DNA of 64,000 bases from Promethearchaeota archaeon (GTDB taxonomy: Archaea; Asgardarchaeota; Lokiarchaeia; Sigyniarchaeales; SOKP01): positions 77,978-141,977 of the forward strand of contig JBHLON010000003.1 in assembly GCA_048940445.1 (NCBI GenBank). Direction: 5' to 3'. The notes beneath the pieces are model-generated. The model ran no database searches, was not told the DNA's origin, and was given only the letters and a program-made list of their open reading frames with translations. The stretch's first letter is position 1. Every line of letters begins with the position of its first letter. The translations under genes and the position numbers were made by a program. Of the stretch, positions 34,525 to 38,699 are shown piece by piece.

Positions 34525-35580
34525 TTATTTATTTTTTATCGAAAATTCTAAAATCAAATGACGTCTATCTCGAATACCCTTCATTTTTCGAGCAGCAGCA
34601 GCATTAGCTTCATTATCTGCACCTACTGGCCAAGAACCCCACCTTAAGCCTCTTTTATAAACATTCATAGAAGTACAACCATACATAAGCATTGCAAGCC
34701 CAGAACGCCTATGATCTGGGTGCACTACCCAATCATGGAAGCTTGCAGAATCAATCCGGTTTCTCTTATCTCTTGAGAAAGGATTAGGCACAATAAAACC
34801 ACAAGCTACCATTTTATGTGTAGGTTTGTGATAAACAATCCATATATAGTGTTCTGATCCGAATTCATAAATAAATTCTATATGCACTTGGGTATTGATT
34901 GGATTTAAAGGACTAATTTGAGCCGATGCTGGCATGAATTTTAGATGTAACTCTACAATATCATCAACAACTTTCCATATTTCATTTTTTTTTGGATTCT
35001 TATATTCATAACTGGAAAAATCATAATAAGAACCATTTTTTTTTTTTAATTTATATGGATTTAATTTAATTGTAATTACATCGTATCTATCTTCTTTAAA
35101 TTTTACATAGAATCCTTTTTCTAAGAATTCGCGTTGATAAATTGGGGGATTTGTTGGGCAACAAATAAATAAAGATTTATTACTACCTTCTGCCATGAAT
35201 CCCCAACCAAAAATCACAGCAGGTATATTTACTGGTCCTCTGATGTAATTATAATCATTTTTTTTAGCATATTCAATTAATTGAGTAATTAAAAATTTAA
35301 TTTTTTCCTTCTCATGATCAAATACTCCAAAAAAGCCAAAAAATAATTTATCCGCTCCATCATCATAAATAATTGTAATCCCTTGAGTATTATCTACTTT
35401 CTCACCAAAAATATCATTATGTAAGGTTTTTTCTAATAATAAAGCCTTTACATTATAGGCTCTGAAAGTTTTTAAAATATATTTTTCGAATTCTGGCAAA
35501 ATGGGAATTGAAGTCCCTAAATATAAATATTTAAGAATTTCATTATGATTTTCTAATATCTTAACTTTTAAATCCTTCAT
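34525..35580 (-). CDS. tandem GNAT N-acyltransferase, YghO/bacterial ceramide-synthase-like
   Basis: FFGFF, IRGPVN, G...EG, NPPIY...F.E.GF; C-terminal VHPDHRRSGLA acyl-CoA motif. Confidence 0.7.
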   Translation of the reverse strand: MKDLKVKILENHNEILKYLYLGTSIPILPEFEKYILKTFRAYNVKALLLEKTLHNDIFGEKVDNTQGITIIYDDGADKLFFGFFGVFDHEKEKIKFLITQLIEYAKKNDYNYIRGPVNIPAVIFGWGFMAEGSNKSLFICCPTNPPIYQREFLEKGFYVKFKEDRYDVITIKLNPYKLKKKNGSYYDFSSYEYKNPKKNEIWKVVDDIVELHLKFMPASAQISPLNPINTQVHIEFIYEFGSEHYIWIVYHKPTHKMVACGFIVPNPFSRDKRNRIDSASFHDWVVHPDHRRSGLAMLMYGCTSMNVYKRGLRWGSWPVGADNEANAAAARKMKGIRDRRHLILEFSIKNK

Positions 35581-35668
35581 TATTACTTACTAGAATGTTC
35601 TAATAATAAGTAATTAACTTTTCTTTATTTAAAATAGACTGATATTTTCTTGAATACCTGATAAGTAT

Positions 35669-36376
35669 CTATAATTTATGTATAATCCCATAATAAATAA
35701 ATATCCCTGAAGGAACTACAATAAAAAAAACTAGGAATGCCCATATCGTTCTAAAAATTACATTATACCAAGTGTTAAAAAGTATTAATCCATAAAAAGC
35801 AATGAACATTCCAATTATTCCTACGAAGAAATATAAAAATCTCTTTCTCAATTTTTTGTCAGCGAATGATTTATATAACTTAAGAGATAAGATTAATGAG
35901 GGAACAAATATCGCTGATGAAAAGAAAATATACATGGTAATAAAGAACGGAAAACTAAATATTGGAGACCAATCCGTACTTTCACTTATAGTTATACCAC
36001 CTGGTAAAAATAAAATTATTAAACCTATAGAAATGTAAATAAGAATAATAATAATTTGCCTTTTAGATGAATGATAAGGCTTTATGTTAGTTAAATTAAG
36101 CATAAAAATGATTAGAAAAATAAACCCGCTTAAAGTGCAGAATGCAGAGAAATAATAGAGAATATACCCAATGATACTCGTGCTTAAAAGTAGAAAAATG
36201 AGACTTAGTAAAAATCCAGTAGCAGGTAAGAAATAAAATAAACTTAAAGTTAAATTCATTCGATTAAAATTTCTTCTTAAAATTTTAAAGGATAAGAAAT
36301 ACAATAATAATGAAATAAATGAATGCATCAAAAGGACAATAAGAATTCTCACAATTTCAAATCCTTGGAATATCAA
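35669..36376 (-). CDS. stand-alone seven-TM protein (HisKA_7TM-like sensor fold)
   Basis: 7 hydrophobic helices, PGGITISESTDWSP loop between TM4 and TM5, basic loop KKLRKR between TM5 and TM6; no cytoplasmic output domain. Confidence 0.75.
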   Translation of the reverse strand: MIFQGFEIVRILIVLLMHSFISLLLYFLSFKILRRNFNRMNLTLSLFYFLPATGFLLSLIFLLLSTSIIGYILYYFSAFCTLSGFIFLIIFMLNLTNIKPYHSSKRQIIIILIYISIGLIILFLPGGITISESTDWSPIFSFPFFITMYIFFSSAIFVPSLILSLKLYKSFADKKLRKRFLYFFVGIIGMFIAFYGLILFNTWYNVIFRTIWAFLVFFIVVPSGIFIYYGIIHKL

Positions 36377-36507
36377 ACAATCACATAATAATATTTTTTA
36401 TTATTATTATAATGTATTTCTATTCTTTATAAAATTACTTTTCACTGATATTGTTAGAGTGTTTTAAAGGTATTAAATGAATAATTACACTCGATATTCA
36501 ATTAATA

Positions 36508-37362
36508 TTAATTAAAATTAAATTCAAAAGATTTCATTTTAAGATAATCATAACCAACAACTTTCGGAGCTTTTACCATTTGTTTTATTTTTAAAATACC
36601 ACTAAATATAATCTCATATGCTAAATAAGATGCATTTAATCTAACAATAGGAGCTAATGAGATCGATGGGATTTCTTGAGATAATAATTGATTTATAGAA
36701 TTTTTCTCTCTATCGTATCTTTTTTTGATTTCTGGAAATTTTATTAACTTTAAGAAAAAAGCATTTTTGATATTTTTAATTGCCTCATCTGATTTTTCTA
36801 TATCTTGGATTTCAAGATTATGAGTGTTTAATCCATAGCAAGTTTCGTAATCAATACTATCTGAAGTGAACCACCAAGCGCATAGATACGGTATTGCCCA
36901 TGATTCTATCATTGGTATCTTATTTTTACTGCATTCTCGAGCAATTAAAATTGATCCAATTGGATCATCAAGAGTTAAGGCTACAATAGAAATATTGGAT
37001 AGTTTCTCTTTAATATTTTTTTTGTTTACATTTATAACTTTATTTAAATTTAGTTCGGGATTTATAGACTTAAGGAATCTTTCCATAATATCCACTTTAT
37101 ATTTGCCGAGATCATTCCTAGTACATATTTGGCGGTTGAGATTAGAGGGTTCAAATTGATCATTATCACAAATCAAGAGATTTTCACATCCACTTCTAAC
37201 TAATTGTTCGGCTAAAGGACCACCTAAGCCCCCTAAACCAAAAATTGCAATATTTGCCTTACGTAGAATCTCTTGATCTTCAATATTGATTATTCCAATA
37301 TTTCTGGATACTTGATTCCAATAAGATTGTGTCCAATTTTTAAGTTTTTTTTCCTCGACCAT
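36508..37362 (-). CDS. ThiF/E1-like adenylyltransferase, Zn-free small-molecule-type subfamily
   Basis: SRNIG, GLGGLG, DNDQFEPSNLNRQ, GKYKV; lacks the MoeB CxxC pairs. Confidence 0.88.
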   Translation of the reverse strand: MVEEKKLKNWTQSYWNQVSRNIGIINIEDQEILRKANIAIFGLGGLGGPLAEQLVRSGCENLLICDNDQFEPSNLNRQICTRNDLGKYKVDIMERFLKSINPELNLNKVINVNKKNIKEKLSNISIVALTLDDPIGSILIARECSKNKIPMIESWAIPYLCAWWFTSDSIDYETCYGLNTHNLEIQDIEKSDEAIKNIKNAFFLKLIKFPEIKKRYDREKNSINQLLSQEIPSISLAPIVRLNASYLAYEIIFSGILKIKQMVKAPKVVGYDYLKMKSFEFNFN

Positions 37363-37442
37363 AGTTTATATGTTTAAATAATAATTACATCTTTTAGTTA
37401 GATCCTCAAAAGATTGTAAAAAATAAATTTATTTAATGGAAA

Positions 37443-38699
37443 TTAAAATTTTTTTATTTTTAGAAGATCTGATATTCGATTATCTTTAGAAGGCTTCAAA
37501 ATTTGAATCAAATCAATTGCTTCTGGAATTAGCTTTATATTCTCATCAATAGATCCATTAAAAGAATTAAAAATAATTTGATCTTCAAAATAATTTTCAG
37601 ACTTATGAAATCTCCAACAAGGAATGTATCCTCTGGGTTTAAATCCCGCATCATTAAAAATTTTTTGATGTTCAGGTAGATATGCTGAGACATAACATTC
37701 GAAATAATTTATATTCATTGAATCAATAAAAGTTTTGACTTTTTCAATGAAAACAAATAATTCTTCTAACGATTGAATTTTATATTTTGTATTTTCAATA
37801 TTTTTACTATAAATATTATGAAAAAATTCAAAAAATGAGGAAGTCTTTTTTATTAAAAATTTTACTTCTTGATTTCCGAAAGTATCTTCTTTAATTTCAA
37901 CAGAAACAGATGATCTGATTAATTTGATATCTTTTTGACTTAAGGTGATCTTTGGATTTTCAATAAGAGGTAAATTCAGATTATATCTTTTATTCGTATA
38001 ACTATAACAATTTAAAACTTGTCTAATCAGTTTAGGCTTTTCTTTAAATCGATATTGTTTCAGTATTGCTTTATTAAATATAATATGCAAAACATCAGAT
38101 TCAATTTTGTTAAAGAATATATCTTTATTAGGAAGAAATGCAATGGGTTTCATACCAATCAAAGATGTAAAAAACTGAGAAATTGCTTCGTTAGTACGCA
38201 TCTCTCCATACCATAAAAAGATTTTGTCTCGATATTCTCTCCATAAATAAATTATGCATCCAATAAATGCCTTAAAAATATCAGTAGTTTTTTGATATTG
38301 CTTTTTGATATTAAAACCATGGAGGAATGCTCTTTTTTCATGTAAATCCAAATCTGCTCCAAAACAACCCACAATTTCTTTTGAATTTAACTTAAAGATA
38401 AACCAATGATAATTTGGATGGATAATCATCTTTCTTATAGAATTAATATCTTCCATTTGTTTATAAGGGTAGGTTCCTCTATATATTTCTTTGAATATAC
38501 CCACAATTTCTTTCGCATCTTCAGGTTTAGCCAACTCAATTATTGGACAAATTTTTTCAGATTTATAATAATAATCTAGCTCAAAATCAAGATTTAGTAT
38601 AAGTTTTAAATCCAAACTTGATATATAATGATACCTATCAAGAAATTCATCAACATCGATGATTTCCTTTCTCTCTTGACTTAAACTCTTTGATTCCAA
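37443..38699 (-). CDS. tandem GNAT acyltransferase-like protein
   Basis: AKPEDAKEI...IY.GTYPY, KKQYQK, SQ.....GMKPIAFLP; second lobe HQKIF..AGFKPRGYIP. Confidence 0.75.
   Translation of the reverse strand: MESKSLSQERKEIIDVDEFLDRYHYISSLDLKLILNLDFELDYYYKSEKICPIIELAKPEDAKEIVGIFKEIYRGTYPYKQMEDINSIRKMIIHPNYHWFIFKLNSKEIVGCFGADLDLHEKRAFLHGFNIKKQYQKTTDIFKAFIGCIIYLWREYRDKIFLWYGEMRTNEAISQFFTSLIGMKPIAFLPNKDIFFNKIESDVLHIIFNKAILKQYRFKEKPKLIRQVLNCYSYTNKRYNLNLPLIENPKITLSQKDIKLIRSSVSVEIKEDTFGNQEVKFLIKKTSSFFEFFHNIYSKNIENTKYKIQSLEELFVFIEKVKTFIDSMNINYFECYVSAYLPEHQKIFNDAGFKPRGYIPCWRFHKSENYFEDQIIFNSFNGSIDENIKLIPEAIDLIQILKPSKDNRISDLLKIKKF

Follow-up and report, generated by a model that had tools for sequence, protein, structure and literature searches.

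A cluster of four genes was analyzed in a 64,000-nucleotide stretch of DNA (the window, to whose first letter all plain coordinates refer) from contig JBHLON010000003.1 of a Promethearchaeota archaeon of the class Lokiarchaeia. An earlier reading, made without database searches (the sequence-only reading), had taken this cluster for a locus that makes and perceives a small-molecule signal. The cassette is located on contig C47 of a 3.64-Mb genome that is 93% complete, and it comprises the following genes, given in the order in which they are read:

38699 to 37443, minus strand: GNAT-418 (G), a tandem-GNAT protein of 418 aa, the first core gene.
37362 to 36508, minus strand: a zinc-less ThiF/E1-like adenylyltransferase of 284 aa (PF00899), an optional tailoring enzyme.
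36376 to 35669, minus strand: a stand-alone seven-helix membrane protein (7TM) of 235 aa, recognized by hydropathy, the linked member of a multi-copy family.
35580 to 34525, minus strand: GNAT-351 (Y), a putative tandem-GNAT N-acyltransferase of the YghO/bacterial ceramide synthase family, 351 aa, the second core gene.

All four open reading frames (ORFs) were intact and lay on the same strand with gaps of 80, 131 and 88 bp, as had been described. A scan of the locus for promoters and terminators with a bacterial model, applied here to an archaeal host, gave counts no better than chance. As shown below, the two GNATs are the conserved core and their partners are exchangeable, and sequence comparisons make it somewhat probable that the cassette encodes a modular pathway whose product is an N-acyl amide, either a lipid or a lipid-like metabolite, that would remain associated with the cell.

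The AlphaFold model of GNAT-351 (pLDDT 92.6) is a tandem GNAT, with MAB_4324 as its best structural match (Z 21.5, root-mean-square deviation 3.1 over 289 residues); the top matches included sugar and small-molecule acetyltransferases, and glucosamine N-acetyltransferases were among the closest solved folds. A direct pairwise comparison of Y with Escherichia coli YghO was not significant. The Y family profile aligned with YghO in hhalign (probability 89, E 2e-6), and a helarchaeal Y orthologue linked both proteins (E 2e-39 to the Y profile, BLAST E 2e-12 to YghO). Furthermore, the Y profile gave six bacterial YghO-like proteins scores of 16-48 bits, and shuffled sequences 0.6, the motifs aligned along the length of the proteins, and the acyl-CoA loop was intact, with G294 present in 41/46 sequences. 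These comparisons show that GNAT-351 is a true relative of YghO, i.e., a member of the bacterial ceramide-synthase family. YghO has been listed as a homologue of the Caulobacter acyltransferase CC_1154, which is needed for dihydroceramide (PMC9386255). In bacteria, genes of this family adjoin genes for proteins like serine palmitoyltransferase (SPT) or, in rhizobia, form an operon of the type ThiF - transmembrane (TM) protein - YghO-like - nitroreductase; since the rhizobial members sit with these partners, the YghO family is not confined to ceramide. Plasmid searches with the helarchaeal G and Y proteins found nothing.

The two flanking GNATs had been described as different tandem-GNAT enzymes, and this was borne out: both fold in this way, their mutual similarity is weak, and the G profile does not match YghO. 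In the AlphaFold model of GNAT-418 (pLDDT 89.6) an N-terminal GNAT lobe is followed by a second GNAT-like lobe. The helarchaeal G orthologues matched the AblB model TIGR03827 with E 8e-7 to 9e-5, i.e., 22-29 bits vs a cutoff of 205, and GNAT-418 of the window itself had no match to this model, so that it does not belong to AblB proper; G appears to be a remotely AblB-like amine acyltransferase, the likeness residing in the N-terminal lobe. The coenzyme A (CoA) loop of the Lokiarchaeia G proteins is altered, with Asp140 where Gly is usual (47/50) and Lys143 (44/50), whereas the helarchaeal orthologues retain a normal loop. Many G proteins of genus g12 carry a fused DUF998/Frag1-like membrane domain (e.g., L162:13404-15329). 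The atlas look-alikes of G are bacterial, and some of them are fused to cNMP-binding or HATPase_c domains. The G profile found nothing in 401 genomes of the phylum to which a Bacteroidales bin belongs.

The assignment of Y raises the question of whether this enzyme really functions as a ceramide synthase, with sphingoid bases that are either scavenged or made by the cell, in which case these archaea would make ceramide-like lipids. The family membership of Y, its near-core distribution and the DUF998/Frag1-like fusion on G are in line with such a role, as is the reported global Asgard association of eukaryotic sphingolipid metabolism (PMC12872458). However, the sole SPT-like protein of this genome is best explained as a Kbl/BioF-type enzyme (480 bits), and it missed the curated cutoffs of the SPT models (346/640, 249/500 and 198/670) in this 93%-complete genome, the sole one scanned for SPT. 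No SPT, acyl carrier protein or acyl-ACP synthetase gene was linked in any sampled locus, and in a tree with few bacterial rows and no outgroup the Asgard Y proteins fell outside the SPT-linked group. A de novo ceramide pathway was rejected, given that neither SPT nor linked partners were found, and we regard the ceramide synthase role as a whole as very unlikely.

The second gene encodes an enzyme of the E1-like superfamily (PF00899, E 4.9e-35, 121 vs a cutoff of 28 bits). It retains the adenylation residues R20, the glycine loop 42-47, D66, N76-R77, K89 and D132-D133, of which R20, G42-G47, D66, R77, K89 and D132 are conserved among its orthologues. All motifs that had been quoted for it are present, and the lack of the zinc-binding CxxC pairs was confirmed: the protein has six cysteines and no CxxC, and CxxC was found in 0/49 orthologues. 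The absence of a sulfur-carrier gene also held, with no small GG-ending ORF on the cassette contig. The SAMP/ubiquitin-like ORFs of this genome and its four CxxC-bearing E1s are located on other contigs, one of these E1s beside a SAMP-like gene. The cassette ThiF neither grouped with the carrier-activating enzymes (UbaA/MoeB/ThiF/E1) nor had a linked GG-ending carrier. It reached no NCBIfam cutoff. The best model spanning nearly the whole protein was PRK08223 (NF006077), the subfamily to which it had been likened, but the score was 88.6 vs a cutoff of 266 bits and a true PRK08223 member falls in a neighbouring clade; membership was thus rejected, and what stands of the comparison is the near-full-length match and the location of relatives beside N-acyl-amino-acid synthases. 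The TcdA model NF011696 (47.1 vs 304 bits) and UbaA (61 vs 450 bits) matched the N-terminal half only, as did the best sequence match in the PDB (9EGB-D, E 3e-14).

The placement of ThiF rests on a carefully built tree of 39 rows, with a midpoint root and its deep forks open; a tree of 120 rows was run in quick mode only. In the 39-row tree the Loki enzymes form a clade (support 100/99) that includes one Bacteroidales member and one unplaced sequence. This clade lies within a 96/92 group that also contains FeeM-neighbouring and PlsC-fused proteins, and within a 97/98 group that contains the enzyme of Shinella. The FeeM and nitroreductase fusions, including the true PRK08223 member, form a separate 97/90 clade, and TcdA and the CxxC enzymes stand apart. 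As for gene context, the nearest outside relatives adjoin or are fused to FeeM, PlsC, nitroreductase or YghO-type acyltransferases; the arrangements found include FeeM - methyltransferase - ThiF - methyltransferase - dCache kinase, a gene beside two FeeM genes in Phycisphaerae, and a ThiF-PlsC fusion beside PlsC. The Bacteroidales sequence inside the Loki clade suggests gene transfer between both groups. On its contig (L147:7058-14805) there are three ThiF genes, one of them in the Loki clade, together with an amidohydrolase, HlyD, an ABC exporter and a FeeM/autoinducer-synthase-like gene. Genes of the amidohydrolase-2 type turn up repeatedly next to the closest ThiF relatives (L095, L099, L147, L154, L155), and their products could open or hydrolyse the ThiF product. 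At L096:5187-9767 a double-ThiF protein occurs with a GNAT, a deoxyhypusine-synthase-like gene and an ornithine/arginine decarboxylase, a possible acyl-polyamine pathway.

It could be argued that ThiF acts on tRNA, like TcdA, or on SAMP or ubiquitin-like proteins, with its neighbours being incidental. TcdA likewise lacks CxxC in its aligned sequence, and the residues of the ATP site are common to all E1-like enzymes. However, the TcdA and UbaA scores are low and partial, these enzymes fall in separate clades (starred in the tree), the genome has its own CxxC E1s, and ThiF is patchy in its distribution while its linkage to the GNATs is retained across gene-order shuffles. The sequence-only reading had named a grouping with TcdA or UbaA as the result that would speak against it, and the enzyme lies outside both. 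The identity with TcdA was rejected on its score and its clade separate from E. coli TcdA, and a role on tRNA or SAMPs, rejected on clade, scores, distribution and linkage, is improbable in the extreme.

We then considered how the four genes are distributed. A neighbourhood analysis of ThiF, of the kind that had been proposed as a check, covered 61 loci with ThiF orthologues: a GNAT-351 homologue was present in 52 of them, a GNAT-418 homologue also in 52, and the 7TM lay within reach in 28. Gene order and orientation varied and two chromosomal settings were found, so the linkage of ThiF to the GNATs exceeds chance; the bacterial relatives are likewise linked to acyltransferases. The close matches from homologous-protein searches were labelled Asgard or carried no label. 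Of 134 genomes of the Lokiarchaeia family, 106 contain Y and 105 contain G, as against 49 with ThiF, so that the GNAT pair occurs about twice as often; the 7TM family is represented in 126. In genus g12 (54 genomes) ThiF is present in 2, Y in 46 and G in 44. Across the phylum (400 genomes), Y was found in 123 and ThiF in 57, nearly all inside the same class, and the cassette is therefore lineage-restricted. G and Y also lie side by side in a further Loki family, two closed genomes (6,035,313 and 4,324,194 bp) among them, and in one genome whose G groups with Helarchaeota proteins (Helarchaeales); no ThiF of the cassette type was found in the two closed genomes or in the helarchaeal-type one.

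The modularity of the cassette was analyzed in 93 loci anchored on Y, counting genes within 5 kb; these loci were hand-chosen starting from ThiF hits, include non-independent relatives, and in some cases stop at a contig edge. G was present in 81 of them, ThiF in 56, the 7TM in 39, a WbuX-like PP-loop enzyme in 16 and a second TM protein family in 18. ThiF and the 7TM occurred together in 28 loci, ThiF without the 7TM in 28 and the 7TM without ThiF in 11. The WbuX-like enzyme accompanied ThiF in 3 loci and occurred without it in 13, and the 7TM and the second TM family were never found together. These results indicated that the GNAT pair is the conserved core, and that ThiF or the WbuX-like enzyme and the membrane partners are exchangeable. 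The four genes had been expected to be co-conserved; a strict four-gene unit was rejected, since the GNAT pair outlasts both ThiF and the 7TM. A B12-binding radical SAM gene, possibly a methylating tailoring enzyme, sits in the cassette in four loci (L046:6173-7678).

The WbuX-like protein matched its family with E 1e-35 to 1e-43, at 122-147 bits vs a cutoff of 203. The WbuX family forms amides or amidines through an adenylate, so that this enzyme could plausibly stand in for ThiF. It also bears on a different possibility, namely that the GNATs acylate proteins or surface glycans, with G being a regulated protein acetyltransferase that serves as a sensor output and the WbuX-like enzyme modifying N-acetyl sugars. 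WbuX is an N-acetyl sugar amidotransferase family, the solved folds closest to Y include glucosamine N-acetyltransferases, and the regulatory domains fused to bacterial look-alikes of G fit as well. But the WbuX scores stay below the cutoff, recurrent glycosylation genes were not found in the sampled loci, and protein or glycan acylation would leave unexplained both ThiF, with its relatives tied to acyl-amino-acid synthases, and the motifs that Y shares with YghO. We consider this possibility unlikely.

About seven hydrophobic segments were found in the third gene product; its tail is short and it lacks a cytosolic output domain, in agreement with its description as an output-less 7TM protein. 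No Pfam family, known 7TM receptor families such as 7TMR-DISM, HisKA_7TM, GPCR and rhodopsin included, was matched above its cutoff, and one of 27 family members weakly matched 7TMR-DISM_7TM (E 0.009). The family is expanded, with about 440 matches in 127/135 genomes, i.e., about 3.5 paralogues per genome (three in this one), which often occur as tandem pairs away from the cassette enzymes; such a pair of stand-alone paralogues lies at L003:7810-9353 on contig C104 of the same genome. One subgroup tracks the GNAT pair, and not ThiF, and stays adjacent to it through gene-order shuffles. The other gene with a conceivable link to sensing lies at the end of the cassette:

31692 to 34514, plus strand: a soluble multi-PAS histidine kinase (Pfam PAS/HisKA/HATPase), convergent with GNAT-351, context only.

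The ends of the kinase and GNAT-351 genes are 10 bp apart, and a PAS kinase is present in 20/61 ThiF loci in varying orientation.

In the model of the sequence-only reading, the 7TM would sense a diffusible N-acyl amide made by the enzymes, in a circuit resembling quorum sensing; an oxazolone could also be the signal, and the PAS kinase could perhaps relay it. The chemistry required is the same as that of the lipid pathway that we favour. The constancy of the linked 7TM subgroup, the presence of some membrane protein close to the GNAT pair in 57/93 loci and the FeeM-methyltransferase-ThiF-dCache kinase operon of a bacterial ThiF relative speak for such a circuit, and oxazolones have been proposed as stress signals, although no phenotype was found (10.1101/2020.06.11.147165). 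Nevertheless, a receptor specific for the ThiF product should track ThiF, and the 7TM is missing from half of the ThiF loci and persists in 11 loci without it, so that its role as cognate sensor is doubtful. In addition, it is one of several paralogues, has no receptor-family match beyond the weak one above and no output domain, and the PAS kinase is soluble, with an orientation that differs from genome to genome. A function as membrane anchor, exporter or regulator fits at least as well as that of a receptor, given that another TM family replaces the 7TM (the two gave a probability of 30 in hhalign) and that G can be fused to a third membrane domain. The signalling circuit is thus of low probability. 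Of the original proposal, the context of acylation and activation chemistry stands, and the fixed synthase/receptor unit does not; its alternative of a role in membrane-lipid modification gained ground, in that most of the evidence on both GNATs points to lipids.

We propose that the cassette encodes a modular acyl-amide pathway that would work as follows. Y, by analogy with its relatives that acylate sphingoid bases, would move an acyl chain, probably a fatty acid, from acyl-CoA onto an amine or amino acid. G would carry out a second step on an amine, either an acylation or the formation of an amide, with a donor possibly other than acyl-CoA. Where present, ThiF would adenylate the carboxylate of the product, which would then cyclise to a saturated oxazolone or be handed to a nucleophile; in other loci the WbuX-like enzyme would amidate the product instead. 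The membrane protein would be an anchor, exporter or regulator of the pathway rather than a receptor devoted to the ThiF product, and the product would most likely remain with the cell envelope. Known pairs of an acyltransferase and a ThiF protein make N-acyl oxazolones by forming an N-acyl amino acid, which the ThiF domain then cyclises in an ATP-dependent step (10.1101/2020.06.11.147165), and the Loki loci plausibly work like these first two steps. The ThiF domain of TrzS yields a saturated ring without oxygen (PMC12856293), a chemistry that suits an anaerobe. More speculatively, a saturated oxazolone, itself an acyl donor, could feed G with its altered CoA loop; the frequent occurrence of G without ThiF weighs against this being obligatory.

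Several points weigh against the acyl-amide pathway. With its altered CoA loop, the Lokiarchaeia G may use a donor other than acyl-CoA or may have lost catalysis. GNAT folds do not specify a substrate, and the homology to characterised enzymes is remote, the best Y orthologue reaching 34% over 104 aa. Neither an acyl carrier protein homologue nor SPT was found in this genome. The lipids reported for P. syntrophicum are ordinary archaeal isoprenoids, amide lipids not being a stated target (PMC11316595). Finally, the sample of loci is skewed to those with ThiF and contains related genomes.

How the archaeal ancestors moved to fatty-acyl membranes and how Lokiarchaeia use acyl-CoA besides its degradation are open questions (PMC12872458), and an enzyme of the ceramide-synthase family that is paired with another GNAT in roughly 80% of one family's genomes offers a concrete handle on both. 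In a bolder and rather unlikely extension, Lokiarchaeia and Helarchaeales would make fatty-acyl amide lipids (ceramide- or aminolipid-like) or lipid signals, which the expanded 7TM family would sense or handle; if true, relatives of eukaryotes would link acyl-amide lipid chemistry to 7TM proteins. The cassette is no evidence for an ancestral eukaryotic pathway, because it is confined to one lineage and, outside that lineage, its nearest relatives are bacterial.

Further genes were noted around the cassette and its paralogues. A small TPR protein and an 85-aa helical ORF (39125-39776) lie upstream, as they do in 19/61 and 17/61 loci, respectively. Judged by sequence only, a heterodisulfide reductase/MvhD/ferredoxin-like cluster (40695-53957) adjoins the locus, together with a second large HdrA-like gene encoded on the other strand; the cluster is frequently syntenic with the cassette. 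On contig C42 of the same genome there are a second Y and a second G, 11.5 kb apart and with no ThiF between them (L001:5263-6339 and 17852-19078). These copies flank a gene block that in other genomes adjoins the ThiF cassette. The conserved unannotated block there (L001:6737-10453 and neighbours; C42:30358-37957) recurs in more than 30 sampled Loki loci and encodes a membrane protein of about 1240 aa with a weak ATPase-like region, for which no Pfam match was found, and proteins of 277, 240 and 649 aa.

Among known systems, the oxazolone pathways OxzAB, TyzACB and TrzAS resemble the Loki locus in having one or more N-acyltransferase genes beside an ATP-dependent ThiF-like enzyme without a sulfur-carrier partner, and the adjacency of ThiF and acyltransferase is seen here for each GNAT. 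Unlike them, the Loki locus has no fused or adjacent flavin oxidase, ThiF is optional, the acyltransferases are YghO- and AblB-like tandem GNATs, and the Loki ThiF belongs to a clade neighbouring that of the nitroreductase fusions. No flavin oxidase or nitroreductase was found at the window locus, and none recurred in the ThiF loci; nitroreductase-like ORFs were seen in three loci without ThiF. Membership in the classic oxazolone systems was rejected, as the linked oxidase was not found. With the bacterial ceramide system (Caulobacter CC_1154, E. coli YghO) the locus shares the fold of GNAT-351 and motifs along its length; it differs in having no SPT, acyl carrier protein or linked reductase, and in that Y is partnered with a second GNAT. 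The two-acyltransferase aminolipid pathways OlsB/OlsA and GlsB/GlsA (PMC11631085) also have a conserved pair of adjacent acyltransferase genes, but the Loki enzymes come from different families and include no O-acyltransferase of the PlsC type; that review does not report aminolipids from archaea. The beta-lysine N-acetyltransferase AblB (TIGR03827) is a remote match to the first lobe of G, which differs from it by the low scores of the orthologues, the extra C-terminal lobe, the altered CoA loop and the lack of any lysine aminomutase seen in the cassette loci.

A plasmid-borne operon of five genes in Shinella, Ensifer and Rhizobium, with the order hypothetical - ThiF - TM protein - YghO-like GNAT - nitroreductase, has ThiF, a membrane protein and a YghO-like enzyme in the same order as the Loki cassette, and its ThiF shares the 97/98 clade with the Loki enzyme. 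It differs by its nitroreductase, and in single-sequence comparisons no similarity was detected between the 7TM and the Shinella TM protein or between G and the first Shinella gene. The rhizobial operon (L203:4051-9145, L211:3040-8060) is a candidate oxazolone-type pathway in culturable hosts. The pairing of G with Y, its breadth in Lokiarchaeia and the exchangeable modules were not found in the literature searched; the enzyme parts all come from known superfamilies, and in rhizobia a parallel operon exists. The cassette looks like a bacterial-style kit for attaching acyl groups to amines, and it is common within a single branch of the closest archaeal relatives of eukaryotes.

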